Origin: a virus
Direction: 5' to 3' (one strand)
IMG/VR virus record: IMGVR_UViG_3300042448_000816
Location: 32,001-96,000 of that record
Length of the DNA: 64,000 nt
Shown one piece after another: positions 9,460 through 37,405 of the stretch. Numbering within the stretch: position 1 is the first letter of the stretch; each line of letters begins with the position of its first letter. Under the pieces are notes generated by a model. That model ran no database searches. It had not been told where the DNA came from and saw only the letters and a list, made by a program, of their open reading frames with translations. A program made the position numbers and the translations under genes.

Positions 9460-9785
9460 TAAAACTTTACTCCATGTCTTTCTGGTCGTGACTTATTAAA
9501 ACTAGTCTTATTGTTTAGAGCTACCTGTAGCTCTTGGTCGACATATCCATTATCCACCAATCCTTGGTATAAGTCAAGTGTTCTGATTACAATGTCTGCC
9601 ATTTCGTCAGCGACTTCTTGCTTTCCCTTATTTTTACGAATGGCTTCCATGACCTCTACTGCTTCTGACACAATCATCATTAGCTGTTTAGTAATAAAAA
9701 TATCGTCTACCTTCTCAGGCCAGAAGCCTTTTTCTACTGCAGTAGTATGAATTTCTTTTGCCATATCGTCTAGCCTGTTATACAT
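9459..9785 (-). CDS. MazG-like nucleotide pyrophosphohydrolase
   Basis: SEAVEVMEA...EMADIVIR. Confidence 0.8.
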   Translation of the reverse strand: MYNRLDDMAKEIHTTAVEKGFWPEKVDDIFITKQLMMIVSEAVEVMEAIRKNKGKQEVADEMADIVIRTLDLYQGLVDNGYVDQELQVALNNKTSFNKSRPERHGVKF

Positions 9786-12700
9786 CTTTTACATCCTCCA
9801 TAATTATTGTTCCATCTTTTGTTTTTCCGAAAGAGAAGCTATATGCAGACCCCTCTTGAACTTTCATATATGCCTTTGGAAAGGCTGTTGGGAATACCGT
9901 TACTGAGTGCAGGTTTCTAGAACTATCTGCAAGTGTTAGTGAGGCCATCTTCTTGCCAGCCTTGGTGATCCTTGGCTTAAAGGAAACAACAAACATGTCA
10001 TCATCTTTGTAAGGTAGCTGCTTGTATCCCAAAAACTTTACAAGGGCATTACTGGATTGTTTAATTTCATCCACAGGGATAGCAGTAACAATCCTATTGT
10101 TATCGCATAGAAGGAGGTAACTCCTACCAGCCTCAATAGTGGTTTGCTCTTCATCAAATATTCCTACGCTTCCAGTCTTATCTAAGACTTCTACACGTGA
10201 CCAACCTTTTCCACGCTTAATAGATTTTACCATACCCATCAAGACAAATGCTCCCTTTTCTTCAAACTCTTCTATTGGATTAATGAAGGCATAGTAGTGA
10301 GAAGGAACCGTGATGTTGAACTCTGGAAGGTTCAAAAACTCATAAAGATTTTCCTTAATCTCTTCTTCGTTTCTTGGATTGTCTTCAAAGGTAGCTGCAC
10401 CAATTACACGCAACGCCTGTAGAGATCTAGTGTTTACGCCACTACCCTTGGCAAGAGTAAACTCTTCCAAATGCTTATAGCTTTTGAATGGTCTTTGAGC
10501 AATGTACTTTGCAGCAATGTTATCAGAGATAAACTTAATAGCAGTTAGCCCAAAACGAATTCCCTTACCCTCAATCTTAAAGTCTGCATCAGAGTCGTTA
10601 ACGTGAGGTAGCTTAACAGAGATACCCATACGCTTAGCTTCAATAAGATACTCTGTTCTAGTATCCTTATCCTTTTCATTCTTTAGCAAAGAATACATAA
10701 ACTCTAGTGGGTAGTAATACTTCAACCATGCTGTCCAATATGAAAGAGTCGAGTAAGCCACAGCGTGAGACTTGTTGAAGGAATAGCCTGCGTGTGCCTC
10801 AAAGTCTTGCCACAAATCTCTTGCAGAGTTAGGAGCCATAAACTTAGAAGCTCCATCAATAAACTTATCCTTAAACTTGTCAAACTCTTTGGCGTCCTTC
10901 TTCTTACCGATGATCTTACGAACTTGGTCTGCCTCTGCCATCGTCATTCCGCCAAGCTCTGTACAGGCTTGCATAACCTGTTCCTGGTACAAGATACATC
11001 CGTAGGTCTCCTGAGTAAAAGCTTTCATGACCTGGTGGTGGTAACTAATATTTTGTTTACCGTGCTTACGAGCAATGTAATCTTTACCAATAGTATTCAT
11101 AGCACCTGGACGAACTAGAGCGTTGGATGCAGCTAGCTCAGCAAAGTTTTTAATACCCATCTTTACAAGCAGGTTAGTATAGGGAGTGGCTTCACACTGG
11201 AACACACCCTTCGTATATCCAGAAGAAAGCATTTCATAAACTTTTTGGTCTTCCATATTTACAGAAAGCAGCTCAAGCTTTTTGTTATGCCTTTGCTCAA
11301 TAATTTTAAGTGTGTCCTGAAGAACACTAAGAGTCTTTAGTCCTAGAGCATCAATCTTAATTAAACCAATACGCTCTGCCTCTGCCATGTCTACTGCAAC
11401 TACAGGAATTCTTTCGTCTGATCCAGGAGATGATCTGGTTTCCATTGGTGCATACCTAAAGATTGGCTCCTTGGATGTTACAACTCCAGCTGCATGAATT
11501 CCCGTACCACGAATTCTTCCACGAAGCTGTTCTCCGTATCTTTCAATCTCTGGATACTTCTCACGAAACTCTGCAGTAGACTTTGATGTGCAGTATTCAT
11601 CCCAAGTGTCTACAAGCTTCATAACCTTGTTTACGTCTGGAAGAGGAATGTTTAGCACACGGGCAATGTCTCTCACAACACCCTTATCTTTGAAAGATAG
11701 GAAAGTTGCAATAGATGCAACGTGACGATATTGGCGGACAAGATAATCTTTTACTTCCTCACGACGGTTGTCCTGAATGTCCGTATCAATATCTGGGAAG
11801 TCGTTACGTTCTGGATTAATAAATCGGAAGAACAGTAGTCCGTGTTTGATTGGATCAATATCTGTAATCCCAAGAGTGTAGCAAAGAAGTGAGCCAGCAG
11901 AAGATCCACGTCCTGGACCAACCATGATGTCTTCTTTCTTTGCCCACGCAATCATAGAGCGTACGACAAGGAAGTATGGTCCAAAGTTTTTATCTTTGAT
12001 AACCTTAAGCTCTTCGTCTAATCTTTCTAGATACTGTGGGTCTGCCTCTAGTCCTCTAGCCTTTAAACCTTCTAGGGCTAGTGTCTTTAGCTCTTTGTCT
12101 GGGTCTTTGTATTGAACTGGCAAAAGGTTCATGTGGTCTTGGATGTTATAATCCTCGATCTTATTAGATATCTCAATTGTATTTTCATACATGTCATCTC
12201 TATCAATACCCTGAGCCTCCATGGCAGAACGCATCTCTTCATTAGATAGCAAGTGAATATCAAACTTGTTAAAACTCATCTGTCTGTCTGCACCATACAG
12301 ATAATCTAGTCTGTCCATAAGGTTATCAAACTTTTTAGACTTGTCGTATGTAGCATCCTTTTCAACCTTGTTAGAGTAAGTGTTAAGGATAAGCTTTAGC
12401 TCTTGAATTTCTTTTTGCTCTGGACCTGAGTGGTGACAGTCTGGAGTTACTACGGGCTTGATGCCAAATTCATCTGCCAATTCTAAGATTGTTTTGTTCA
12501 TCTCTGGTGGATTGTGTGGCATTACCTCAAGGTAATAGTCATCACCAAAAGTATCTTTACACCACTTGATATGTGTTTTAGCAAAGGCTAGGTTTCCTGC
12601 CTCAATTGCCTTAGCCAATACTCCACTAAGACATCCAGAGGTGACTACGATACCCTCTTTATACTGTTCTAAAACTTTCCAGTCAATTCTTGGTTTCTTG

Positions 12701-13056
12701 AAAAATCCCTCAGTCCAAGCAATCTCATTTAGTTTGTTTAGGTTTTCTAGACCTTTAGGATTCTTGGCAAGAAGGACAAGGTGGTTATAAACAAGGTCTA
12801 GTGGCCCTGTTCTCTCGTCTTTATCACGACGGTCAAAACGATCCTCCGTTATATATCCTTCTACGCCAAGTATTGGCTTGATGCCCTTTTCTTTTGCAGC
12901 ACGGTACATCTCTCTGTGACCAGACAAAGAACCGTGGTCAGTGATTGCAATAGCGGACATCCCTAGTTCAGATGCACGATCTACATACTCTTGTGGAGTT
13001 GCGATTCCATCAAAGAGTGAGTAGTGCGTGTGAACGTGTAAGCCAACATACCCCAT
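9778..13056 (-). CDS. dnaE: DNA polymerase III alpha subunit (family C) with PHP domain
   Basis: HVHTHYSLFDG, TDHG, GPGRGSSAGS, PDIDTD, FNKSHA. Confidence 0.96.
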   Translation of the reverse strand: MGYVGLHVHTHYSLFDGIATPQEYVDRASELGMSAIAITDHGSLSGHREMYRAAKEKGIKPILGVEGYITEDRFDRRDKDERTGPLDLVYNHLVLLAKNPKGLENLNKLNEIAWTEGFFKKPRIDWKVLEQYKEGIVVTSGCLSGVLAKAIEAGNLAFAKTHIKWCKDTFGDDYYLEVMPHNPPEMNKTILELADEFGIKPVVTPDCHHSGPEQKEIQELKLILNTYSNKVEKDATYDKSKKFDNLMDRLDYLYGADRQMSFNKFDIHLLSNEEMRSAMEAQGIDRDDMYENTIEISNKIEDYNIQDHMNLLPVQYKDPDKELKTLALEGLKARGLEADPQYLERLDEELKVIKDKNFGPYFLVVRSMIAWAKKEDIMVGPGRGSSAGSLLCYTLGITDIDPIKHGLLFFRFINPERNDFPDIDTDIQDNRREEVKDYLVRQYRHVASIATFLSFKDKGVVRDIARVLNIPLPDVNKVMKLVDTWDEYCTSKSTAEFREKYPEIERYGEQLRGRIRGTGIHAAGVVTSKEPIFRYAPMETRSSPGSDERIPVVAVDMAEAERIGLIKIDALGLKTLSVLQDTLKIIEQRHNKKLELLSVNMEDQKVYEMLSSGYTKGVFQCEATPYTNLLVKMGIKNFAELAASNALVRPGAMNTIGKDYIARKHGKQNISYHHQVMKAFTQETYGCILYQEQVMQACTELGGMTMAEADQVRKIIGKKKDAKEFDKFKDKFIDGASKFMAPNSARDLWQDFEAHAGYSFNKSHAVAYSTLSYWTAWLKYYYPLEFMYSLLKNEKDKDTRTEYLIEAKRMGISVKLPHVNDSDADFKIEGKGIRFGLTAIKFISDNIAAKYIAQRPFKSYKHLEEFTLAKGSGVNTRSLQALRVIGAATFEDNPRNEEEIKENLYEFLNLPEFNITVPSHYYAFINPIEEFEEKGAFVLMGMVKSIKRGKGWSRVEVLDKTGSVGIFDEEQTTIEAGRSYLLLCDNNRIVTAIPVDEIKQSSNALVKFLGYKQLPYKDDDMFVVSFKPRITKAGKKMASLTLADSSRNLHSVTVFPTAFPKAYMKVQEGSAYSFSFGKTKDGTIIMEDVKDV

Positions 13057-21338: not shown

Positions 21339-24300
21339 TTACACCTCACTCAAATATAAACTCATGCTTGGTCCAGAGCTATCTTTTTTATAATCTATGC
21401 TATAAACAACAAATCTTTTTTCTGGATCAAAAGTTACTTCATCAGAACTATCAGAATAGTCTATGGACACGATATCTCCTAGCTGTATTGTTGGGTTAGC
21501 AAAAATGCTAACGCCTACGGACCTTCTCGGTTTCATAATTTTTGATATTAACCATTTCATTAAGTTGTTAGCTGCATCAGCACTTTGTATATATATAGAG
21601 TCCAACAAAAACTGATTTCTTCCATATGTTATTCTACTAGATTTAATGTCATTATACAATTCTTTTTGTGTTCCTGGAGACAGGATGGTTAGGTCTTCTT
21701 TTAGTTGTGGATTTGAAAAGTTTGAAGTTTTTTCAAAATAATTATCAACAGTTAAATCATAGCGAGAATCTTGAGTAAATGTTATTCCTTGAATTCTTAA
21801 GTAGTTTCCAACTGTTTCATCTAAGAATAAGAATGTGTCTGTAGCGTTAAAGATTAAGAACTCTGCACCATATGCTCCAGCAAAGAATCCAGAAACCGTG
21901 TATCCACGAAGCTTGTTAAATGTTGGAGATATTGATGCGTATAAGGCTGGATAAGCCTTGTCATACTTTACATTAAAGTATGCCATCTCCCTAAAGATAC
22001 TGCCGAACTCTTCATAAAACATGTTATATTTTGGTGGCTGAGATGGGTCTATTCCAGAAAGGTATGTAGGTTGAACAATACCATTGATCGAATATTTCCT
22101 AAATGCTTCATTAGATGATATGTCAGATTTGTTTGTAAAAATTTCATTTGCAATTGGGCCCAGAGAAACGTCAGAGTTTTGACTATAGTTGTTAGTTAAA
22201 GCATAAACATTTTCAAACATGCAGTGAGACGCTCCACGAACAAACAGTGCCACATTGTTTACATTATTTAGGGGGAGTGGGTCTGGATCGTCAACTACCG
22301 CTATCTGAGTATCATTTAGGTATAAGAAAAATCTTCTAGAATTTCCTACTGGTTGATACTCTATAGCTAGATCATAAACAGTTGTCAGCTCTTCAGCCAC
22401 TACCCTTGACTGGCCAGCAAAGTTTCCATCATCAACAATAATAGAGGATAGACCGCTCCAAAGCTTAACTGGTATTCCGTCTTCATCTCTTGTCAAAACC
22501 CATTTTGAGTTTTCTGATCCTGGCGTTGTTAGCGTATAATATCCATTTTGAGAAGGATCTTTTTGTCCAATTAAAGAAACTCTTTGACCAACTTGAACAA
22601 TGGATGGTGCTATTCCTCCAGACGGCAGGATAAGTTCTCCATCCTGAGAAGCTGTTATAGTAGTAGGCGTTGCGGCACCAGGCAAGTTATTGTCTAGGGT
22701 CAGGCTTGTTGCTGTTGGCGTTGGGTCTTTTGTCGGATCTCTTAGAGGAGTCTGAATGTCATAGCTTGTGTTTTTTAATATTTTATAGAAAAATACATTA
22801 GCCACTCCGTCTAAGTCAAAGGTAGAAGGAAGCAGCGATATGTTTTCGGTCTGATTGATTCCAGTGGTGTCTTCAACTGTAAATCCAAATCCAGATATGG
22901 TTACTGCTGCTGATGTTGCCCCAGTTACGGTCCAGGTTCCGAGTGCATATGTAGGCAGATTTACAGGACTAGAGCTAGCTGGCTTTCCAGAATCAAGAAT
23001 AATTTTAGATCCGACTGGGTAGCTTTTACTTGCTGAGCTAACGTACACAACAGCAGAGTTAGAGCTAGTGGCGTTAAATCGTGTAACATTTTTTCTAACT
23101 CTAGAGCTATTTAGCTTATACTTATCTATATTTTTTTCTGATAAAGCTGCTATCTCAAAGTAGTATCCGTTGTTATTTTCTGGATTTAAAAGTGTCGCAA
23201 TTCCACCGCTTCCACCAGAAATAGTTTTATTTTCATCTGGGGTTGTGGTTTCCACATTAAAGTATGTTGTTGCTCCTGAAGCATTCTGAATTGACTTATC
23301 ATTGTTTTCAATTTTTCCGATAATTCTCATTCTTGTTCCAAAATGTTTAAAAGAATTATTTAATGGTTTATTTACGTAAGAAATAAAATCTATTGGAGAA
23401 TCTTCTGAAGAAAACGATGGTCCATTAAATACCAGGGCTGATGCCTGAACAGTTTCTGATGTAGAGGAAAGCTGATTCTTGCTAGATAGCTCTTCGTTGT
23501 GAGAAAAAGATAGATAGTTTTTTATTACGCTAGACCTTGAAGACTGAGTAGCTAAAGACTTTCCTACTCCAGCTGATCCTGTGCTAATGTCCCCAGTAAA
23601 TGCAAAATTTCCAAACAAGTAGTTTGACTTCATTTTACATCCATAAACATTGTCGTTGCTTGTCCACTCAGGGCTTAGTCCTGCAACGTGAGGCACGATC
23701 TTTGTACCAAATTGTTCTCTGCCGTGTTTAGCTACCTCACCGTTGGACATTCTGGTTATGCCATTAAAAGTTTCGTAGTTTGGCTCTGCATAAATTCTTA
23801 CACGTCCAGTTGGATAGATTTTTCCATTAAATGATAGCTTAGAGAAATAGTCTTCGTATTCTTGTGGACTTGTTATCCAAACGTTTCCTCCAGTAAAAGT
23901 AGATCCTGTTACGCTTGATGGCAAAACCGAAACGTTATACTCTACTGCATCATACCTTATAACTTCTCCAGCAGAATAAAAATATCCATTGTATCTTCCG
24001 ATAAACAAAACTCCATCTCCAAAGTCAATAATGTTATTGACAATTTCATGATTTACGACCCTAGGTATTTGATCATTCAAATCTGAGTTCAATGGAATAG
24101 CTGCTAATGCGTATTTGTTTCCAGTTGCTGTTTGTCCATTTGTAGGCTTTATATTTTCTGTTCCTGAAACTTCCCAAAGCAATGCTGGCTTGTATATCCA
24201 GGAAATATTTTTATCTGCAACAAAGGCTTGCTTTAGAGACCCCATAGATTTCTGAATGTACCTTGCTATATAACTTATCTTGCCGTCGTTAAAAACATTA

Positions 24301-26261: not shown

Positions 26262-27029
26262 TTAAACCTCTTCTAGACTTACGCTAATATTCCATAAATC
26301 ATGATTAGAGCTACCACGTTTTTCAACTGAGTATGTAAAGCTAGAAATATACATTTCAATAATTTCATTGTACTGTTTTAATCTAGAATATTTTTCTGGG
26401 TCATTATTAGAAAATTCTGTATACTTATCGTAAGCAAGGTATACATAAAAAGACCCTTTGTAAGAATTGTACCAGTCTAGTATTTCTAGACCACCTGCTC
26501 CGCCGTCAGACGTAAACTGCTGATCTTTGTAGTATGGAGAGCCGCTGAATTGCTCTACAATCTTTTTTGGTGTTAGGGAATTGTTGTCGTGATCTATTTC
26601 TCTAACCAGAAGCTTGTCTGGTGTTGATGGATTCTTATCGTGGTCTACAGATTCTACTAAGCCTTCCGCTTTTCCAAACTCATTAAATCCTGGAAAGTTT
26701 GAAAAAGATCTAGATGGTAGCATAGTCCAGGATGTGGAAAGCTCTATCTTATCTGCAACATGATAAGACCTCATTCTTCCATTTATCATTCTTTCTCTTT
26801 TTTCAATCCTTAATGAATTAAATTGCAAGGAAGATCTGTTGTCATCTGATAATATTAAAAACTCACCAATTAGTTCTTCTTCTGTTGCATCTGTAGGTCT
26901 AATTTGACCAACTTCAAATCCTGAAGGAATATACAAGCCTTGCTCAGAAATACCTGGATTATTTGCCCAAAGCATAGCTTGTGGACGACCGTATTTTTTT
27001 CTATTAGTCATGTATGCATTAGTTGCCAT
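26262..27029 (-). CDS. Distal tail-like protein
   Basis: Immediately downstream of the TMP; RMINGRMRSYHVADK...W, WNISVSLEEV. Confidence 0.6.
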   Translation of the reverse strand: MATNAYMTNRKKYGRPQAMLWANNPGISEQGLYIPSGFEVGQIRPTDATEEELIGEFLILSDDNRSSLQFNSLRIEKRERMINGRMRSYHVADKIELSTSWTMLPSRSFSNFPGFNEFGKAEGLVESVDHDKNPSTPDKLLVREIDHDNNSLTPKKIVEQFSGSPYYKDQQFTSDGGAGGLEILDWYNSYKGSFYVYLAYDKYTEFSNNDPEKYSRLKQYNEIIEMYISSFTYSVEKRGSSNHDLWNISVSLEEV

Positions 27030-30000
27030 CAGAACCTATTGCTCCTTATTCTTTGAGAATCAATGTTGCGAATCTGCCCCATTACAGTTTGTGCAATTGC
27101 GTTAGGGTCTGACTGAGAAGCAACATTTACGCTCAAGTTATAATTATACACTGAACTGGAAGATATTGGGGTAACTTGACTTGATATTACAGAACCCTGG
27201 CTAATTGAAACTGGAGAAACTTGAGTATTAAAGCTTGGAGAGCTAAAGTTTTGTGCAGTAGGCCCCCCTGAGAATGATCCCGCTGAGAATGAGCCAGAGT
27301 TAATACTATCAAACAGCTTGGTTCCAAGTTCTTTGACTCTTTGAGATTTTACAACATATTCTCCTGGAGAAAGCATTGCTGGAATTGTGTCTGTGCCCCT
27401 GCTTACTAGGCCTCCATTAGCAAAGTATCTTGGCATCCATTCTGAACGATTTTGGTAGCCACCAAGGCCAGGTACGCTTTGACGATATGATGGAGTAAGA
27501 TCAGGTCTTCCTTCACGAATTAAACCATCTATCATTTCTCTATTGTAGTCTTTACCTTTTAATTGCTGGAATCCAGTTTTTGCTCTTATACCTTGACCAA
27601 TATCAAAGTGATAGATTTTCTGACCCGTTGCTCTATCGGTTGTTACTCTCACAAGCTTCATGTTTTGACCTCTTGCAAGAAGTCCATCTACTACGTTAGA
27701 AGCTGGCGTTGGAAGTATTTTATTTATGTCTTCTACACCTGGAATGTCTGACTTTACGTTAAACTTATACAATGGGTAAAGCGGTAATCCATTACCTCCA
27801 CGTCTTCCTCCAGTTTGAACAGTTCCTTTAGCCATTCCCTCTAAAAACTCTTTACTTGAAGCAGTTGTAACTGACATAAACCTATCTAGGGTAACTGACT
27901 GACCTGGTTTTAAAAGTTTTAAAATTTCAGCATCTGACTCATTGGCCACTCTAACTAGAGGAGTTCCCTTTGAAATTCCAAGACTATTAGATTTAATTAT
28001 ATTGTCAATGAAGGCTCTGTTGCGATCATAGCTACCAAACAATGTGTGTGCAGCGTTGCGAACATAGCCATCCATTGTTGCTATTTCATCTGGGTCTTTA
28101 AGAACTTGGGGATTTGGGTTACGCTTAAAGTTTATAAAGTTTTTTAATGCAGATGTATTCTTGGTTGCTTGTGTTACAGCTTTAACTCCTGTTGAAACAC
28201 CCCTTCCTCCAGGAATAAAGTTTAATGCTCCCAGTCCAAGAACCATAGCGTCTGCTGATGTAGCTTTTCCTTGACCTACATTTATTAGAGATTTTGTAAT
28301 GTCAATGCCTTCTTTTGCCATTGAAATAAGGGGAGAAATTTTTGCTCCAAAGTCTAAAGCTTTTTCAAACATAGATGGTTTAGGTGTTGCTGCTGGTGGT
28401 GGGGTGTCGTAACCTCTGCCTGATGGTTTTGCAGCTAATGCCCTTCTTTCAGCTGCATCTGCTGAAATCCTACCTACTGGTTTTGCTGGGGTAGACTTAG
28501 AAGATCTACCACCATCTCTCATCATTCCACCCATCTTAAATCCTGGAAGCTCTCCAGAGTTAATAGAGTCTAAGAATCTTTGACCAAATTTGTTTACAGA
28601 AGCAGCCTTAATTACGTATTCACCATTAGAAAGCATAGCTGGAATTGAATCGGAAGTTCCCGTTCCTGGTCCAGAAATAAGACCGCCAGCGGCGTACCTG
28701 TTTCCGTAGGGATCAAACATTGCCCCTACTCCTATTTCACCGCCCCAAGGTCCGAAAGATGGGTTCCAAACATCGGGAGGAAGGGATGAAACTGAAAGAG
28801 CTATAAGTCTGTCAGCTTCAGCTTTTGTTACTTTTGAAAGAAACTGTGCAAGTCTTCTGTCTCTTGCATCGGCACCGCCGCTATCTGCCCCAGCAGCCTT
28901 TAAGGCTCCAGCCATAACTGGGGGATGAATATTCATTTGTGCTCTAAGTCTTCTTCCGTGAGAATTTGGTTCTGGGAAGGTAATAGTAGGCTTATCAGGA
29001 ATAATTTCATCTTCTTCTTTGCCACCATCGTTATAGGTAGTTGCGGGAGGAACCGCACCGTCAGTAACAGTCTGTACTGTTAGGGTAACAACTTTACTTT
29101 GAATTCCTGCCCAAGCATCCTTTACGTCTTGAACAACTGCAAGGGCTTTATCCATATCATCTTTGTATCCAGCACTGCTTATTCTTGCTAGATCAATACC
29201 ATTTTTTATGTTTTCCCATTCAGCCTTTGTTCTTCCCAAAACTTTTTCTTCTTCGAGTTTTGCTTCTAGCTCTAGATCAGCCAGCCTGACTCTTTCTGCT
29301 GCTGGCTCCAGAGCACTCTCTTCAATTTCAAGTATTTGATTTGTAAGCTGTTCAATTCTTTCTTCTATTTCAATTCTGGATAGTCCAGCTTTTCCTCTAA
29401 TTGATTCAAGTAATGATTGTCTACCCTCGTTAAGTGCGTCAGTCTGACCTGTAAAGTATGAAGAAGCTGAGCTCTCTCTTACATCTTGAACCGCTCTTGC
29501 AGCAGCAGCAAGGTCTCCACGAGTAATTGCTTCTGCTACTGAAAGCTTGCCCTTTTCTTGGTCTAGTACTTGCTGGTTTGCCTTACGAACCCTCTCTAGT
29601 GCCTCTAGCTTTTCATCGTAGGTTTTATTAATAGCATTCTCTTGATCTTCAATACCTCTAAGATCTGCATCATAGTCATCAAGCTGGTATCTTATTGCAT
29701 CTATTTGGTTTTGAGCGTTTTCAATAATTGCTTGGTCATTAGCTATCTTGAATTCGTATTCTAGAGTTAGCTTTCTTTCTCTAACATCAAAAGATTCCAT
29801 TGCCCTGTTAAAGCCTTCTTCAAATACATCTTGAAGTCCTTCTGGGGTTAGTCTTGCAGCTTCTTCCATAGCTGCTTTAGCATTTCTAAGCTCAGCAAGC
29901 ATTGTGTTAAGCTGATCTCTAGTTACGTTTCCAGTTGCCACTGCAGAAGCTACGGCTGCGTCTTCTACGGCTTCATAGGCTTCTGCAGCAGAGAATCCAG

Positions 30001-33000
30001 CAGCTCTTAGTTGATTAAAAGCTAGTACTTGGTTTCTTGATTCCTTTGCAGATTTTTGCTGATTGCTAACATACTGTCCTAAAGCAACTGCAGCCAAAGC
30101 CTTGCCAATATTTTGTAGCTGTGCTTTAAATCCTATAATTTCTCCAGTTTGCTTGTCAAAGTTAAACAGGGTATTCTTTTGTTTTTCAAAGTCTTCTGGG
30201 CTCATTCCAGCTATTAGGCTAATTAGATCTTCTTCGGCACCTAGCCTTCTCATGTCGTTTTCAATACCGCTGAAAAGATTAATTCCAGCTCCGCCACCAA
30301 AGAGTTTGTTGATGGCATCAGCCGAAGCCTCAAAGCCCTTTGCTACAGAAATTTGGTTTTTACGAATGTCTCTTAGCTTCTTTAGAATGTCATCTAGAGA
30401 AGACGCTGCTGGCCCACCGCTACCGCCACCAGGATCTAAGTCTTCATCTATAGGAGCTGTAGTATTATCTTTTTCTGTTTCGGTAGTTATAAAACCACTG
30501 TCTAAAGCAAAATCTGTAAATTCTTTATCTTTATTTCCTGGTTCGTTTAGCCACTCTCTATACTGGTCCATCATGGCTTCGTCGCCCTGAAGAAGCATTG
30601 TTGTAACAAATTGGGTCATAAAGGTTTTTTGAAAATTGTCTGGCAGCCCATTGAAATATTGTTCATATTCTTTGAAGTTGTCCATATTTTCTTCACCGAT
30701 AAGATCGGTAATAACATCCATGCCCATTTTACCGTCAACAGAGTCTATGATCTCTTTCATTTCCAACATCTTGTCGGCGGCACCTTCATTTTCATTTAGG
30801 TATGTTAGAACTATTTCTGCATCTAGCACCCTAGATACTGACTCAAACATTTCTAGATATTTTCTAGCTTCTTCTGGAACATCGGATTTTGCAGCAATAT
30901 TTGCCACAAAGTTTGTTTGCTGATCTAGAAGTGGCTCACCATTTTCATCTTTAAACATTTTCATTACGTTAAGGGTTCTGTTGGTATCTGCGTTGCCCAG
31001 ATTATCCATTAGAGTAAAGGTTTTTGTCATCATGTCTGCGTCTGATCCAAAAACGTTCATAAGTTCTGAAATTACTAGAGGGTCTAGGTCACTGGCTAGT
31101 CCGACAGTAAGCATGTATTCTTGAGTCTCGTTTAGTCCACTTGCATCAATTACTTGTTGTCTGGCTCCCATAGCAAGAGCTAGACCTTCGGGATCGTCTG
31201 CAAACCTATTTTCTATACTCTTTTTTGCAGCATCTTGTAGGGCCATTTTTCCAGAAAAGTCTGCACCCTCAAAAGAGCTGGCTATAGCTGCTCGTGTTTC
31301 TGCTCCTTGTTCCAGCAAAGCTGATCTGTCTATCATATACTGGTTTGTAAGACGTTCAGCTTTTGCTAAGTCTCCTGCAGCTTCTGCTATAGAAATTCTT
31401 TTTTCATAGTCTAGGTCTAGTGAGTCCAAAAGTTGCTGCTGTTGCTGTAATGCCATTTTTGAGCTTGCCACAACAGCTGCAGAAGCAGTTCCCATGTTGG
31501 CAAAAGCACTAACAACTTTTGGTCCAGTGATTGCAAGACCCGCAATGGTTCCTGCAACTCTACCGATAGTAGCACCTATTGCAGTTCCTGGACCTGGAGC
31601 AATTGCTGTTCCTATTGCTGCACCCGCAATAGATCCACCCTGCATCATAGCCCCAGTTGAAAGGGCTGCATAGCCCAATTCTTCAAATGGATTTGGAAGT
31701 TCTTGTAGTTTTTGTGCTACAATACCTATCTGTTTTTCACTATCTTGAGCAAGATTTAGTCTGATGGTTAATGGGTCTTCTAAAAGGTTTTCCCCGTTTA
31801 TTCCAAGAAGCTGTACGAGCCTTGCATTTACATTTAATCCAAAAGAAGTATCTCCAATTTCTTTTGCTATGTTAGAAACAATACTTCTTGCCTGTCCAGC
31901 ATCTAAAGCTCCAGAAGATACGGCATTAACAAGCTGAGTAACTAGCTGATCCTCTGTAGCAGCTCTTCCAAGCTTAGAAATGTTTTCTCTAGTTGCAGCT
32001 GCCATCCCTTGGCCTTGTTCACTTTGAATAAAAGATTCTCCAAATGTGCTTTTACCTGTTTGAACAGCAAACGGCAAAAGAGCATCTGCTCTACGCTTAT
32101 CCATAATTTCACCAGCAGATGCTTTTCCTGCAAACTCTGCAAAGCTTTCTACGGCACTATCTCCAGTTCCTAGGGCTTCATTAAGCTTTAGTGTGCTTGT
32201 TTGGGCCTGATCAAAAGCACTCTTAAGTGCAAAGGCACCTGCAGCTAGTGCTGTAAGTCCAATAACCACTGGAGCAAATTTTCCTGCCATTTGAGCCATC
32301 ATCAATGGCATGGAAGCCATCATAGCAATTTCTGCTCCAGGACCGCCAGTCATTCCGTACATCATGGCTCCCATACCGACCATCGAAGCACCGCCTGCAA
32401 CCTTACTACCTATTGCAGAAAAACGTTCTCTACGAGCTGCAGCTCTTTGCTTTTTTTCATCGGCTGCTATTGCTGCATTAGCAACCCTTTGTTTTTCGGC
32501 GTCTCTTGCGTTAGCTTCTGCTACTACAATTGCTCTAGCTCTTGATTTGTTTAGTTTTCTTTCATGCCTTAAAGCTTTACGCTGTTCTTCAGACATGGCG
32601 TCATATTGTTTTTGATTTATTCCATAACTTTGGGTTATTCCAGCAGCACGTCTGTCTCTTACTTCTTTTCTTGCTGCTGCACGTTCTCTAGATCTTTCAT
32701 TAGTTTTATCTAGAGCCATTGTCTTCTTTGCTTCAGCTTCTGAAATTCTCTTGTTTGTATTTCTATCGTAGAAATGACCCTTTTCAGTTACTCTAACTCT
32801 TTCAGTACCGTCGATGTATGCTGATGTTGTAGCTTTACCAGCCTTAGTAACATCCTTTTCTCCGTCTTCAATTCCCTTAACTACACCATCTACCATATTT
32901 TCTGCTGAAGTTTCTACAAGCAGTTCAGATGGAGAATTTGATCTTGATGCAGTATTTAGCCCTCTTGCAAGCAGTGCTTCTGGAGATTCACGAAGAATTC

Positions 33001-36000
33001 TTGCATAATTTGAGAATCTGTTTGCTCTACCTGTCGTCGTCGACTCTTTATTTTGATTTTTAGCATCAATTAGTTGATTGGCAACTCTAGCTTTTTGATC
33101 ACTAGTAAGGGTTTCTGATTGCATGATCGCATCAGCTTGGTCTTTTAGACTACCTGGAACCATTACGCTAACTTGATCTAAGAATCTGCTACCCCTTACT
33201 CTAGCAAAATCGTCTCCAAACAATCTTTGCATGAAGTTGGTGGCTTTATCTCTTCCATAAAAAATTTCCCTGGTTTTCTTTTGGAGATCTCCCCCAAGAC
33301 TCTTGAGCCACGTCGTAGTTCTGCCACTAGAACTGGCTCCTCCTGGAACGGCTGGAGTCATTTGTAGTCCAGCTACAAAGTTAGAATCTTTAATAATTCT
33401 TCGAATTCTTGGATCTTCTATTTGAAAAACGGAATCCCTAGTTGCTCGACTATAAAATTTATTAGTTTCGTTTTCAGTAAGTTTTCTGCCAGGGTCGCTG
33501 GCTGCTGCAGCCTGTAACTGACTGGCATATGATCTTTCTACATTGCTGATGTATCTGCGGAGCTCGCTGTCTGGAATACCGTGGTTCTGTGGAAGTCTCG
33601 CTAAGATCCCAGATCCAAAAGCTCCTCTAGGCAATCTTGCAAGCTCATCAGCATGTTGCTGGGCGGTCAAGCCACTGGCTCCTACAGTTGCAGTCGCTAC
33701 ATTGGATTGCTTAGTAATTGTTTCTATAAGATTTGGGTATTGAGTAATCTTAGTAACACCCTTAGCCCTAAGTTCCTCAATTTCTGTTGTATATTCTCTC
33801 CAGAGCTTTTCTGCATCAATGCCTAGTCTGTCAAATGCTCCAGTTCTTACCCCCTTTGTCCACTCTCTACGAGCCAGCTCTGTGGCCTGCTCTAGGGTTA
33901 AGTTTCTAGTTCCTGAAGCCATGTGGCCAGAATTAACAGCCGTGCTGTGGGGGAAGTCAACTCTTCTATCTTCACCTGGTGGCTGTACGGGGATTCCACT
34001 AGGAACGCTTTGTTGATACCCAGGAATATTCTCAGCAATTATTCCCTTAATTAGGTCTTGATACTTTGCTGACTGCTTTGCTGGAATTACAGCTTCGCCA
34101 GGAGCAAGCATTGATGGAACAACATCCCCTGCACCCTTTGGTCCAGGTACTGAGAAGACTCCATCCTTGTACCCTGGAATACCCATTTGTTTAAACAGTC
34201 TTGCAGCAAGGTTTAATTTTGGTGGTGGGTCAGCAACTACTGGTCTTCTTATGTATCGCTCTTGCTTAATTCCGTAGTTACCATCTTTTTGCGTTACTGG
34301 AAGTTCGTTATTTTCATATCGATGGTTTATCCTATTTCCTTTTGCATTAAGAGTGGTTCCATAAAGTCCTGCGTTAGAAACAATAGACCTTAGTCTTTGA
34401 AGCATTGTAAACTTTGGCATTCCTACTGGAATTTTTAATCCTTGCTGACGAAGGGCTTGTTGCAATATTGGTATTAGTTGTGGCTCAGTTACAACAATTT
34501 TCTTAACATCTTTGAGAGTAAACCCGCCCATAATCTGAGCTTCAAAAAAGTCTTTGTCTTTTGATGTATAGGATCCCTTAATCTCATCTTTATTTCTTGT
34601 TCCTAGCTTAGCTGGTGTTCCAAATCTATCCAAAGATCTGTTGTAGCTATCTCCGTAAGTAAAAGTAGTTCTGTCTTTTATATTACGGTTTTTCAAAATC
34701 ATTGCAGTATTGCCATACCTAAATGTTTTTGGGTTCATCAATGAAGCGTCTCTGTCCTTAAATATACCTTGATAAGCAGACCTTGTAAGGCTCCTGTCTT
34801 TCTTTCCAGTAAGTCTACTGAACGAGCTTTGCTTGCGTCCTATAAAGCGTTGACCTCTTTCTTCTTTAAACATATATCCATATGTTGGACGTTTTGAAGG
34901 ATCTACATCTTGTGGTAAACCAAATAGTCTTTCTTCTGCATATGCCCTGTCTTTTTCGGTGTCTCCAGCATTACTTCTCTTGGTTTCAAATACGCTCTTG
35001 TACCTTTTGTCTTTGCTACCGATAAGACTGAGCAAATCTTTATCTTGCATTCTAACTGCAATTTTTGGATTAGATCTTATAAATTTGTTAGCAATAGAGT
35101 CTTGCCAGAAATTTGGCTCTGAGCCATGTGGTCCTAAACGGTTTCCAGTCATCAGCCTTAGAAGGCCTTCCCCTATTCCGTAATTACTGCCTTCTGGCTG
35201 AACCGCAGACTTAAACTTTGCAAATGGGTTACGGCCGAATCTAAATCCAGGAACGTTGTCTGCAATCATAGAAGAAATAAATCCACTGTACTTTTGAGCT
35301 TGTCTTGCAGGAATAACTGCCTCGCCTGGAGAAAGCATTGCAGGAACTATGTCCCCAGCACCTTTTGGACCTGGGACTGACAACACACCAGAGGCGTATC
35401 CTATGGCAGGGCCAGCTCCTTTAGGTGGTCTTGTTCTTGTAATAGGGGATCCAGTCATTGCAACTTGAGCGGCAATTGCTCTTCTGTAAGCCTCAGTTAG
35501 ACCATTAACTGCTATTGCTTCAGAAGTAAAAGTTTGTCTTAGCTTTTGGTGCACTTGGTCTAGGGATGCTGCAACGGCAGAAGCTTCTAGCTGTTGCTGA
35601 GTCATGTACTCTGTTTGCATACCAAGCTGTGTACTTGCTGTGCCAGCTCTATTCATTGCAGTTTTAAAGAATACAAAACCCTTTACTACGTTGGCAACAC
35701 CGTTAGCAATAAGACCAAAGCCCATCAAGAATACTGGTCCGATTACTCCAGCTATAGCAGTAAGGCCGACAACAAAGTTCTTTGCTCCGTCATCTAGCTC
35801 ATCAAACTTTTTAAGAATCTTTGTTCCAAATTCTAGGATAGGGGTTACAGCTTTTAGGAATGCCTCTCCTAGTGGAATAAGAGTAACCTTTATATCTTCC
35901 AAAGCTTTTTGGAATTTAAACATTGGAGAGTCTTCAATTTTCTTAAGCTCTCTGGCGGATAGAACGGCAAGCTCTTCTGTAGTTGCATTAGCAAGACTTA

Positions 36001-37405
36001 AAACACGGCTTGCCTGATTACCCTCTTTAATAACGTTTTGAAATAATGTAGATAGACGAGAGAATTGGAACTTTCCAAATAGCTGTTCAATTGCTCTTGC
36101 ACGATTTAGCGGGTCTAGGGTGTCAAGTGCAGTAGCAAAATCCATAACAAGACCTTTTACGTCTCCAGCGTTTGCCTCAACAATGCCTTTAATGTTAATC
36201 CCAAATCCTGCAAGCATTTCAGAAGCTCTGCCAGTTGGGTTAATCAAAGCCGCTAGACCAGACTTAAGTGCGTTTGCACCTTCTGAAGCGTTAATGCCAC
36301 CTTCACGCATAGCAGTTAGGAAGAATGTTAGATCTTCTACGTCTCCACCTAGTTGCTGAACAACTGGACCAGCTTTAGGAATAGCAATAGTTAAGTCTTC
36401 AATAGATGTAATTGTTTGGTTTTCAACAGCGTTAAGAAAGTCAATTTTTCCTGCTAACTCTTCTGCAGAAACTCCAAAAGCATCTGTTAGTGATATTGTT
36501 GCTTGTAGTGCTTCTGCTTGCTCTACCCCACCGAGTACCGCTAGCCTTGTTGTTTCAGCAACTTGAGCATTAAGCTCTGCACCCATCTTTCCAGTAGCTG
36601 CAATGTCTGCGGCAAGCTCCATTGTTTTTGCAGCTGCAATTCCATACTTGGTAAATTCATTTGCAAGATTTTGGATATCCCTAACAGCTTTATCGGTTTC
36701 TTCTGTTGTGGTAAACATTTCACCATAAACACGCTTAAACCTAACAGCCTGCTTTTCCATATCCATGAATGTTTTTGCAGCTACGGTACCTAGCATTACA
36801 AGTGGAACAGTAAAACCAACCATAAGCTGACGACCAGCCCACTGAGTATTTTTACCAAAGTTTAAAAGATTAGTAGAACCCTGCTTAAGTAGCTGATTAA
36901 GTAGTGCTTGCCTTTGAGCAGCAATTTGGGTTTTTGTAGAAAGGTTTTCCATGTCAAGAGCAAGTGGTCTGACTGCGATTGCTCGCATAGCACCGTTTGC
37001 ATCTCTACCCATCTTAATGTATTGAGTTTGCAAGTCTTTGACACGTTCACGTGCGACTTTGTTAATTGTATCAAATTCAGCCCTAAAAAATCTTCCGAAG
37101 CTTTTAGTTGCTGCTCCAGAATATCTGAAGTACTCCCCCATAGAGAGTTTATTTTTTTCAAGAGAGCTTGTAAAGGAATCTGTTGTCGTCTTTACATTTT
37201 TTATGGTAGCTGAAAACTGACCAGTTCTATTTATGCTGTTTAGCAGCGACTGCTGCATTTGCATTGAGGATGCACTAGCAGCAGCCCCAGATTTTGCCAA
37301 AGAGGTATGGAAGGCTGATATCTGTCGCTGAAGATTTTTGATATTGGCCAGAGCTGCGGCCGTATCAATATCAACTCTTATTCTGGCGTTGGCATCTTCA
37401 GCCAT
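27029..37405 (-). CDS. Tape measure protein with internal cargo domains (3458 aa)
   Basis: TP901-type TMP core (about aa 200-470), transmembrane and glycine-zipper segments, long coiled coils, position after the tail chaperones. Confidence 0.92.
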   Translation of the reverse strand: MAEDANARIRVDIDTAAALANIKNLQRQISAFHTSLAKSGAAASASSMQMQQSLLNSINRTGQFSATIKNVKTTTDSFTSSLEKNKLSMGEYFRYSGAATKSFGRFFRAEFDTINKVARERVKDLQTQYIKMGRDANGAMRAIAVRPLALDMENLSTKTQIAAQRQALLNQLLKQGSTNLLNFGKNTQWAGRQLMVGFTVPLVMLGTVAAKTFMDMEKQAVRFKRVYGEMFTTTEETDKAVRDIQNLANEFTKYGIAAAKTMELAADIAATGKMGAELNAQVAETTRLAVLGGVEQAEALQATISLTDAFGVSAEELAGKIDFLNAVENQTITSIEDLTIAIPKAGPVVQQLGGDVEDLTFFLTAMREGGINASEGANALKSGLAALINPTGRASEMLAGFGINIKGIVEANAGDVKGLVMDFATALDTLDPLNRARAIEQLFGKFQFSRLSTLFQNVIKEGNQASRVLSLANATTEELAVLSARELKKIEDSPMFKFQKALEDIKVTLIPLGEAFLKAVTPILEFGTKILKKFDELDDGAKNFVVGLTAIAGVIGPVFLMGFGLIANGVANVVKGFVFFKTAMNRAGTASTQLGMQTEYMTQQQLEASAVAASLDQVHQKLRQTFTSEAIAVNGLTEAYRRAIAAQVAMTGSPITRTRPPKGAGPAIGYASGVLSVPGPKGAGDIVPAMLSPGEAVIPARQAQKYSGFISSMIADNVPGFRFGRNPFAKFKSAVQPEGSNYGIGEGLLRLMTGNRLGPHGSEPNFWQDSIANKFIRSNPKIAVRMQDKDLLSLIGSKDKRYKSVFETKRSNAGDTEKDRAYAEERLFGLPQDVDPSKRPTYGYMFKEERGQRFIGRKQSSFSRLTGKKDRSLTRSAYQGIFKDRDASLMNPKTFRYGNTAMILKNRNIKDRTTFTYGDSYNRSLDRFGTPAKLGTRNKDEIKGSYTSKDKDFFEAQIMGGFTLKDVKKIVVTEPQLIPILQQALRQQGLKIPVGMPKFTMLQRLRSIVSNAGLYGTTLNAKGNRINHRYENNELPVTQKDGNYGIKQERYIRRPVVADPPPKLNLAARLFKQMGIPGYKDGVFSVPGPKGAGDVVPSMLAPGEAVIPAKQSAKYQDLIKGIIAENIPGYQQSVPSGIPVQPPGEDRRVDFPHSTAVNSGHMASGTRNLTLEQATELARREWTKGVRTGAFDRLGIDAEKLWREYTTEIEELRAKGVTKITQYPNLIETITKQSNVATATVGASGLTAQQHADELARLPRGAFGSGILARLPQNHGIPDSELRRYISNVERSYASQLQAAAASDPGRKLTENETNKFYSRATRDSVFQIEDPRIRRIIKDSNFVAGLQMTPAVPGGASSSGRTTTWLKSLGGDLQKKTREIFYGRDKATNFMQRLFGDDFARVRGSRFLDQVSVMVPGSLKDQADAIMQSETLTSDQKARVANQLIDAKNQNKESTTTGRANRFSNYARILRESPEALLARGLNTASRSNSPSELLVETSAENMVDGVVKGIEDGEKDVTKAGKATTSAYIDGTERVRVTEKGHFYDRNTNKRISEAEAKKTMALDKTNERSRERAAARKEVRDRRAAGITQSYGINQKQYDAMSEEQRKALRHERKLNKSRARAIVVAEANARDAEKQRVANAAIAADEKKQRAAARRERFSAIGSKVAGGASMVGMGAMMYGMTGGPGAEIAMMASMPLMMAQMAGKFAPVVIGLTALAAGAFALKSAFDQAQTSTLKLNEALGTGDSAVESFAEFAGKASAGEIMDKRRADALLPFAVQTGKSTFGESFIQSEQGQGMAAATRENISKLGRAATEDQLVTQLVNAVSSGALDAGQARSIVSNIAKEIGDTSFGLNVNARLVQLLGINGENLLEDPLTIRLNLAQDSEKQIGIVAQKLQELPNPFEELGYAALSTGAMMQGGSIAGAAIGTAIAPGPGTAIGATIGRVAGTIAGLAITGPKVVSAFANMGTASAAVVASSKMALQQQQQLLDSLDLDYEKRISIAEAAGDLAKAERLTNQYMIDRSALLEQGAETRAAIASSFEGADFSGKMALQDAAKKSIENRFADDPEGLALAMGARQQVIDASGLNETQEYMLTVGLASDLDPLVISELMNVFGSDADMMTKTFTLMDNLGNADTNRTLNVMKMFKDENGEPLLDQQTNFVANIAAKSDVPEEARKYLEMFESVSRVLDAEIVLTYLNENEGAADKMLEMKEIIDSVDGKMGMDVITDLIGEENMDNFKEYEQYFNGLPDNFQKTFMTQFVTTMLLQGDEAMMDQYREWLNEPGNKDKEFTDFALDSGFITTETEKDNTTAPIDEDLDPGGGSGGPAASSLDDILKKLRDIRKNQISVAKGFEASADAINKLFGGGAGINLFSGIENDMRRLGAEEDLISLIAGMSPEDFEKQKNTLFNFDKQTGEIIGFKAQLQNIGKALAAVALGQYVSNQQKSAKESRNQVLAFNQLRAAGFSAAEAYEAVEDAAVASAVATGNVTRDQLNTMLAELRNAKAAMEEAARLTPEGLQDVFEEGFNRAMESFDVRERKLTLEYEFKIANDQAIIENAQNQIDAIRYQLDDYDADLRGIEDQENAINKTYDEKLEALERVRKANQQVLDQEKGKLSVAEAITRGDLAAAARAVQDVRESSASSYFTGQTDALNEGRQSLLESIRGKAGLSRIEIEERIEQLTNQILEIEESALEPAAERVRLADLELEAKLEEEKVLGRTKAEWENIKNGIDLARISSAGYKDDMDKALAVVQDVKDAWAGIQSKVVTLTVQTVTDGAVPPATTYNDGGKEEDEIIPDKPTITFPEPNSHGRRLRAQMNIHPPVMAGALKAAGADSGGADARDRRLAQFLSKVTKAEADRLIALSVSSLPPDVWNPSFGPWGGEIGVGAMFDPYGNRYAAGGLISGPGTGTSDSIPAMLSNGEYVIKAASVNKFGQRFLDSINSGELPGFKMGGMMRDGGRSSKSTPAKPVGRISADAAERRALAAKPSGRGYDTPPPAATPKPSMFEKALDFGAKISPLISMAKEGIDITKSLINVGQGKATSADAMVLGLGALNFIPGGRGVSTGVKAVTQATKNTSALKNFINFKRNPNPQVLKDPDEIATMDGYVRNAAHTLFGSYDRNRAFIDNIIKSNSLGISKGTPLVRVANESDAEILKLLKPGQSVTLDRFMSVTTASSKEFLEGMAKGTVQTGGRRGGNGLPLYPLYKFNVKSDIPGVEDINKILPTPASNVVDGLLARGQNMKLVRVTTDRATGQKIYHFDIGQGIRAKTGFQQLKGKDYNREMIDGLIREGRPDLTPSYRQSVPGLGGYQNRSEWMPRYFANGGLVSRGTDTIPAMLSPGEYVVKSQRVKELGTKLFDSINSGSFSAGSFSGGPTAQNFSSPSFNTQVSPVSISQGSVISSQVTPISSSSVYNYNLSVNVASQSDPNAIAQTVMGQIRNIDSQRIRSNRF
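27293..27427 (-). repeat. TMP internal repeat B2
   Basis: YFANGGLVSRGTDTIPAMLSPGEYVVKS...LFDSINSG. Confidence 0.85.
28526..28699 (-). repeat. TMP internal repeat B1
   Basis: RYAAGGLISGPGTGTSDSIPAMLSNGEYVIKA...FLDSINSGELPGFKMGG. Confidence 0.85.
34007..34177 (-). repeat. TMP internal repeat A2
   Basis: PGYKDGVFSVPGPKGAGDVVPSMLAPGEAVIPAKQSAKY...IAENIPGYQQS. Confidence 0.85.
35234..35404 (-). repeat. TMP internal repeat A1
   Basis: IGYASGVLSVPGPKGAGDIVPAMLSPGEAVIPARQAQKY...IADNVPGFRFG. Confidence 0.85.

Follow-up and report, generated by a model that had tools for sequence, protein, structure and literature searches.

An ADP-ribosyltransferase-fold domain predicted within a giant phage tape measure protein, with aspartate at the position of the catalytic glutamate

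Alt of phage T4 is an ADP-ribosyltransferase (ART) packaged in the head as a free protein, and its target is an arginine of the RNA polymerase alpha subunit. The C3-type toxins, which belong to the same fold class, are secreted bacterial toxins that act on eukaryotic cells. For the R-S-E group of these enzymes the ADP-ribosylating turn-turn (ARTT) loop has the consensus X-X-phi-X-X-E/Q-X-E (PMC7827354). Active ARTs with an aspartate as catalytic acid are also known, among them Arr (PMC7827354) and EspJ, in which the residue is D187 (PMC4284639). Here we describe a domain near the C-terminus of a phage tape measure protein, encoded in a 64,000-nucleotide stretch of the virus record IMGVR_UViG_3300042448_000816 (IMG/VR; record positions 32,001 to 96,000), which we call the window. 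An initial annotation of the window, made from the sequence, had proposed a VIP2/T4 Alt-like ART fold at this place, with Asp instead of the catalytic Glu. The protein and the core of the domain are located as follows:

27029..37405, minus strand: tape measure protein open reading frame (P0001), 3458 codons in one open frame without stops or frameshifts
27593..28120, minus strand: core of the ART-fold domain, residues 3096-3271 of the protein and 37-212 of the model, delimited by AlphaFold2 and structure matches

Judging from its predicted structure, the domain almost certainly has the ART core fold, in which N-terminal helices are combined with a split beta-sandwich, and is homologous to ADP-ribosyltransferases of the C3/VIP2/T4 Alt type. 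The AlphaFold2 model, built from 10 sequences, has a mean predicted local distance difference test score (pLDDT) of 76.7 and a predicted template modelling score (pTM) of 0.74, with the core mostly above 80. Foldseek against the PDB gave 132 matches at E<=1e-3, headed by C3bot2 (E 2.3e-8), and each of the best 50 of these 132 is an ADP-ribosyltransferase. VIA-align superposed the model on C3bot2 (1r45_C) with Z 10.9 and a root-mean-square deviation (rmsd) of 3.0 A over 149 aligned residues; across model residues 37-212, Z values of about 10 were obtained with C3bot1, C3lim, iota Ia, CDTa, BECa, VIP2, Certhrax and ExoS/ExoT. A structure search independent of Foldseek, over 48,161 representative chains, found 17 chains at Z>=8, 17/17 with the ART fold. 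Chains down to Z 5 were all ART or ART-like, and the first unrelated chains appeared only at Z<=2.9. All three comparisons matched the model to ADP-ribosyltransferases only, in agreement with the VIP2/T4 Alt-like fold that had been proposed. Compared with the viral structures of BFVD, the model matched VIP2, Alt, ModB and MuF-ART fusion proteins of phages. Every one of the nearest ESM Atlas clusters bears ADPrib_exo_Tox (best score 0.90), a lead in line with the other evidence. A chance match of motifs was considered and rejected on the fold evidence.

The initial annotation had looked to profile and structure searches alike for the fold; structure searches were unambiguous, whereas public profiles failed. 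Pfam, PHROGs, NCBIfam and PADLOC gave no match to the domain except a chance-level PHROG match (E 0.067). The Pfam family ADPrib_exo_Tox (PF03496), which had been suggested as a check, found no match at E<=10 in the domain, in 10 homologues or in a six-frame search of the 112-kb genome; the gathering threshold of this family is 23.4 bits, and T4 Alt scored 124 bits as a control. None of the 10 homologues tested matched any ART family of Pfam. Among PDB sequences, phmmer and the family profile found no ART for the domain, and the profile picked up only a repeat module, described below, in the tape measure of mycobacteriophage Douge (8zdo). Searches of 50,697 phage records with blastn and tblastn returned no relative of the domain or of its most distant homologue, P0022, and no cultured relative was found.

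Direct comparison of the family with T4 Alt by hhalign gave E 0.11, which is not significant, and runs against Alt or against Alt, ModA and ModB together gave E 0.08-0.2, likewise not significant; in the combined reference the three T4 enzymes were misaligned by MAFFT. The alignment, although itself not significant, pairs LVR with LYR, FMSVT with FVSTS and SNVVD-GLLARG with SNEME-VILPRG. Because hhalign was not significant, we used a shuffle test of the family hidden Markov model (HMM). On the ART domain of T4 Alt the HMM scores 11.2 bits, and the maximum of 3000 shuffles is 7.8 (0/3000 reach the score). ModA and ModB taken alone are not significant with the same HMM (204/3000 and 101/3000 shuffles). 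The stretch of Alt that scores is the ARTT loop plus strand 5, and there Alt and the domain have in common the pattern 'G..D(V/I)N.(V/I)LP..(A/P)SN.x[ED]..L.RG..(V/M)K...(I/V)T'. On sequence grounds the label 'Alt-like' is apt for the domain. The segment concerned is:

27632..27739, minus strand: ARTT-loop and strand-5 segment, G3223-R3258, paired by the HMM with T4 Alt 'GADKVNVVLPG..APSNEMEVILPRGLMVKVNKIT' and by hhalign in the same way

The six motif strings quoted in the initial annotation all occur, in order, in one minus-strand frame within 27029..37405. The codons it had placed at 27950-27952 (Arg), 27872-27874 (Ser) and 27686-27688 (Asp) are exactly those of R3152, S3178 and D3240. Its range for the domain, 27595-28080, does contain the motifs, but its upper limit misses the codon boundary, 28081, by one base. 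With counts taken over the homologues, the positions around the site are:

28064..28066, minus strand: Y3114, conserved 'x-Y-V' of the N-terminal helices, 19/19, opposite Alt 'EYV' in the non-significant hhalign alignment
27950..27952, minus strand: R3152, the 'R' of R-S-E ('LVRV'), on predicted strand 90-94 of the model, 25/25, opposite the Arg of Alt 'LYRS' (non-significant hhalign)
27872..27874, minus strand: S3178, first Ser of the 'S-T-S' position (reads S-V-T), on predicted strand 118-122, which a helix follows, 26/26, opposite the first Ser of Alt 'FVSTS'
27803..27814, minus strand: conserved T-G-G-R loop (T3198 20/21, G3199 21/21, G3200 20/21, R3201 19/21), in the place and presumably the role of the C3-type phosphate-nicotinamide loop
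27692..27694, minus strand: V3238, position of the first E/Q of E/Q-x-E (acceptor specificity), Val in 25/27
27686..27688, minus strand: D3240, at the catalytic-Glu position and opening predicted strand 181-184, which a long loop precedes, pairing with the second Glu of Alt 'EME'

The strand-2 motif thus reads S-V-T rather than S-T-S, with its first Ser invariant and on the expected strand. At the catalytic site the motif is V-V-D, where the R-S-E group is recognised by a Glu within E/Q-x-E. The C3bot1 alignments end at model residue 212 and chain residue 245, and E214 of C3bot1 and D181 of the model both lie 31 residues before that end; by the same offset, Q212 of C3bot1 corresponds to V3238 (C3bot1 residue numbers were taken from PDB entry titles). 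Because topology, the C3bot1 offset, the hhalign pairing and the shuffle test agree, we regard D3240 as the homologue of the catalytic Glu. The proposal of an Asp at this position therefore holds, with hhalign and the family HMM both pairing it with the EME of Alt.

Homologues of the domain are few. An exhaustive phmmer search over 1.84 billion cluster representatives gave only 21 matches; two word-indexed searches supplied a few more, and there were two viral contigs besides. A metagenome scan re-found only the contig L003. With few exceptions, the full-length members are giant tape measures from metagenomes, with lengths between 1700 and >3600 residues. P0022, a metagenomic protein of 208 aa, stands alone outside any tape measure. 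A survey of the acid in homologues had been suggested, and ours comprised the 27 sequences that include the active site. Across them Arg is found in 25/25, Ser in 26/26 and an acid in 27/27 (Asp 25, Glu 2). Two positions ahead of the acid, 25/27 have Val, and the two others, P0009 with Gln (Q-I-E) and P0022 with Asp (D-T-E), are exactly the two Glu members; with only two Glu cases, this pairing is anecdotal. About 18 further positions are >=95% conserved among homologues down to about 27-45% identity. These include the T-G-G-(R) after the Ser motif and the D-x-P-G...N that opens the long ARTT loop, in which D3220, P3222, G3223 and N3228 are conserved. In a maximum-likelihood tree rooted on P0022, P0009 nests inside the Asp-bearing clade. 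On that topology P0009 represents one lineage that changed V->Q and D->E and so arrived at the canonical Q-x-E of C3-type enzymes. By its pattern of substitution, the site behaves as one under functional selection and not as a relic.

The N-terminal 650 residues of P0001 are those of a typical tape measure protein: Pfam PhageMin_Tail scores 83.8 bits on residues 246-444, and PHROG tape measure families match down to E 1.5e-91. The ART domain, predicted to be present in the virion, is encoded inside this open reading frame; the frame is unbroken and the tail synteny is conserved. A separate gene or a frameshift product was considered and rejected, as the frame is continuous through 3458 codons. 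In the tail of mycobacteriophage Douge, a trimer of the tape measure fills the lumen and its C-terminus plugs the baseplate hub, and it has been suggested that this protein is ejected first and makes a channel through the envelope (PMC13033339). As a segment of the tape measure, the domain would be present in three copies in the distal tail of each virion, and these would leave ahead of the DNA. Being near the C-terminus, it would be among the first parts out of the tail.

Within P0001, four copies of a repeat module, with the motif at residues 688, 1097, 2922 and 3342, form two pairs. Each pair brackets one non-helical domain: M1 and M2 a SopF-like domain, M3 and M4 the ART domain.

35237-35431, minus strand: module M1, upstream bracket of the SopF-like domain
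34010-34204, minus strand: module M2, downstream bracket of the SopF-like domain
28535..28729, minus strand: module M3, residues 2893-2957, '..IPAMLSNGEYVIK..', upstream bracket of the ART slot
27275..27469, minus strand: module M4, residues 3313-3377, '..IPAMLSPGEYVVK..', downstream bracket of the ART slot
34181..35248, minus strand: second cargo domain, residues 720-1075, a SopF/DUF3626-type ART candidate (Pfam DUF3626 26.3 bits, E 4.4e-6, cut-off 27)

The ART domain occupies the last repeat-bracketed slot of the tape measure, so the C-terminal placement first given to it stands. The module is about 60 aa long and has the pattern 'G.G..D.(V/I)PAML.xGE.V(I/V)', with the core 'P-A-M-L-x-x-G-E'. 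Each module is most similar to its partner in the pair, with 35/54 identical residues between M1 and M2 and 27/48 between M3 and M4. Homologues are arranged likewise, and in all full-length ones the ART motif precedes the last module copy by ~75-195 residues (mostly ~100-150). The Douge tape measure contains the module twice (PDB 8zdo, residues 961-1013 and 1413-1460). The module may be where docking, cleavage or recombination takes place. A short conserved segment, '..LGLGALNFIPGGRG..' (residues ~3025-3060, ~28230-28330, minus strand), precedes the ART domain and is disordered in the model; it is common to P0001, P0002 and P0006-P0008 and may be a linker or processing site.

The second cargo domain was assigned through DUF3626, the family of the Salmonella effector SopF (PMC6682159). 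Its model is weak (pLDDT 45), and its best Foldseek matches are SopF (7dn9/7dn8; E 7e-3, prob 0.99), followed by DarT. A profile search of the PDB with this domain gave chance matches only. SopF is an ADP-ribosyltransferase, and PDB entry 7DN9 is its NAD complex. The SopF-type domain co-occurs with the Alt-like domain in at least 5 other giant tape measures, at varying positions. Between P0009 and P0001 the N-terminal 660 residues are 87% identical and the remainder 39-50%, with the ART domain at 44% and in another clade. Because identity falls in this way after the N-terminus, these tape measures are mosaics with exchangeable distal parts. Directly after M2 there is a non-repetitive stretch of ~430 aa without a Pfam match (residues 1130-1560; 32726-34018, minus strand), which may form a third globular cargo domain.

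With odds only somewhat better than even, we favor the reading that the domain is a conserved, injected NAD-using enzyme of the C3/VIP2/T4 Alt branch with an R-S-D site. That it is an active NAD-using enzyme at all we consider fairly probable from the model and its conserved site; that it is a transferase rather than a plain NADase falls a little short of an even chance. If the preferred reading is right, NAD+ would be held by Arg3152 on strand 1, where the conserved Arg of R-S-E enzymes contacts the NAD phosphate, by Ser3178 on strand 2 and probably by the T-G-G-R loop, and Asp3240, with which strand 5 begins, would serve as the catalytic acid in place of Glu. Since NAD+ is cytoplasmic, an active enzyme implies passage of the domain across the membrane. 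Once inside, with NAD+ at hand, it would refold and modify some component of the host while no phage gene is yet expressed, as packaged T4 Alt does. The acceptor would probably be neither Arg nor Asn, because the selecting E/Q of E/Q-x-E is Val here.

Several points weigh against this reading. Glu-to-Asp changes in enzymes that evolved with Glu usually cost orders of magnitude of activity, so if the enzyme is active the Asp must fit the surrounding site. The ARTT loop has Ala at phi and Val at E/Q, so that the aromatic and the E/Q are both absent. The T-G-G-R loop lies in a region of low confidence in the AlphaFold2 model. As there is no public profile match, membership in the branch rests on the predicted structure and one short significant sequence match. 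The structural matches also include ART folds without activity, namely the anthrax lethal factor domain (1yqy, Z 9.3) and XopAI (6k94, Z 9.7). Finally, delivery would need a folded domain of ~20 kDa in the tail lumen to reach the cytoplasm.

The domain retains the acid, Arg and Ser but has neither the aromatic nor the E/Q by which the ARTT loop selects an acceptor, and this would suit an injected NAD+ glycohydrolase. Such an enzyme would hydrolyze NAD+ without a specific ADP-ribose acceptor, lowering host NAD+ or blunting NAD-dependent defenses. First-Glu mutants of iota Ia and ExoS lose transfer and keep NADase activity, and the proposal follows from this precedent. It sits poorly, however, with the long and strongly conserved ARTT loop, as expected of a substrate-recognizing surface, and three molecules per virion is a small number for depleting NAD+ in bulk. 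NAD+ depletion, moreover, normally harms phage replication and is a host tactic of abortive infection. We judge a plain glycohydrolase unlikely, though the strongest of the alternatives.

Ranked behind it, and also unlikely, is a pseudoenzyme, in which the ART fold would serve the tape measure as a plug, a binding module or a structural part (for example in a tail-tip or membrane step) or act as a decoy that binds NAD or a target. The inactive ART folds among the structural matches, 1yqy and 6k94, provide the precedent; replacement of both the canonical Glu and the E/Q and the absence of a match in public ART profiles point the same way. However, the NAD-site residues are lost in inactive folds, the lethal factor domain for one, whereas throughout this family precisely these three are either invariant or replaced conservatively. 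One lineage, besides, reached the canonical Q-x-E through two coupled changes, and the neighboring slot holds a candidate for another type of NAD-using enzyme. A decaying remnant of an ART effector from which selection has gone, which the initial annotation had raised and for which Asp for Glu and Val for E/Q could be read as inactivating, is contradicted by the invariant Arg and Ser, an acid that is always Asp or Glu, the same Val-x-Asp in 25/27 homologues down to about 33-45% identity, ~18 positions >=95% conserved and 3458 codons without stop or frameshift, and we hold it to be very improbable.

An injected enzyme with an R-S-D site remains our preferred reading, and a broader and more doubtful proposal can be built on it. 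Giant tape measures of uncultured actinobacterial phages might be modular injection platforms, and this one might deliver, at the same time, two NAD-using enzymes unrelated to each other, a SopF-type and an active Alt-type Val-x-Asp enzyme, the latter with an acceptor class new for the C3/VIP2 branch (nucleic acid, small molecule, or a residue other than Arg/Asn), so disarming or reprogramming the host before the DNA enters. We regard that proposal, taken whole, as tentative and rather unlikely. Genes for a macrodomain or ARH as possible partners are absent from the genome, which bears neither way on activity.

The tape measure gene is followed directly by this gene:

26262..27029, minus strand: 255-aa gene in the position of the distal tail protein, without family match

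A 1640-aa tail gene comes after it in the window, and the order giant tape measure, ~210-255 aa, ~1500-1770 aa is common to the window and the contigs L003 and L004. The minus strand holds nearly all long open reading frames, and the GC content is ~0.40. The source record of the window is 112,370 bases long and is rated complete by CheckV. Upstream of the window start, at record positions 23234-23407, lies a WhiB-family gene (47 bits, above the Pfam cut-off); among 14 control genomes the family occurs in Corynebacterium only, and its presence probably indicates an actinobacterial host. The window also encodes a full-length DNA polymerase III alpha subunit (9778-13056, minus strand) with PHP, NTPase, finger, HhH and OB domains.

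The usual view of the tape measure is that it acts as a ruler and forms a channel. If the domain is active, the principle of T4 Alt, a ready-made host-modifying enzyme that comes with the particle, would extend to the tape measure of long-tailed siphophages, and the C3/VIP2 branch, whose members are considered to require Glu, would gain an R-S-D site. For the joint action of acid and specificity residue, the coupled V-x-D/Q-x-E switch found in nature offers a ready comparison. Full-text literature searches found no paper describing an ART inside a tape measure. Because the family is invisible to Pfam, NCBIfam and PHROGs, such cargo is now annotated just as 'tape measure protein', and a profile made from the 27 sequences would make it findable.

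Set beside the known systems, the domain shares its fold class with T4 Alt, the only known protein with a detectable sequence match to it (ARTT loop and strand 5). In the hhalign alignment Alt also lacks an aromatic at the ARTT phi position, having Pro there. Alt is particle-borne and available before phage gene expression according to the note in the T4 record, and we infer the same for the domain. The two differ in that Alt has E-x-E and scores 124 bits on PF03496, whereas the domain has V-x-D and no Pfam match, and in that the domain is a segment of the tail tape measure and not a free head protein. The best structural matches are C3, iota Ia/CPILE-a, CDTa, C2-I, VIP2, Certhrax and ExoS/ExoT (Z 9.5-10.9, rmsd 3.0-3.6 A, ~150 residues), and they cover the whole core. 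Like these toxins the domain has the Arg and the Ser on strands 1 and 2, respectively, and opens strand 5 with an acid. Unlike them, it has Asp as that acid, has no E/Q two residues before it, and has a longer loop after the Ser motif, which carries T-G-G-R; identity is 12-20%. It would also differ in its host, as a phage virion protein aimed at a bacterium.

The MuF-VIP2 ART fusions of actinobacteriophages, for example the Microbacterium phages Percival and Goodman, likewise have an ART fused to a virion protein (PMC7302621). Because of that fusion the ART is presumably delivered at infection, but its carrier is the head protein MuF and the domains are recognizable VIP2/PF03496 members. Among enzymes in which Asp works as the catalytic acid are Arr (the rifampin ART), EspJ and HopF-AvrPphF (PMC7827354, PMC4284639). 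Arr, however, belongs to a different branch, H-Y-D, with its Asp on strand 4, and EspJ has been modeled on diphtheria toxin and AvrPphF; neither Arr nor EspJ/HopF-AvrPphF has a sequence relation or a close structural relation to the domain. SopF, an effector of the Salmonella type III secretion system (7DN8/7DN9), resembles the upstream domain of slot 1 and not the one in the ART slot, and that match is weak (26.3 vs 27 bits, pLDDT 45).

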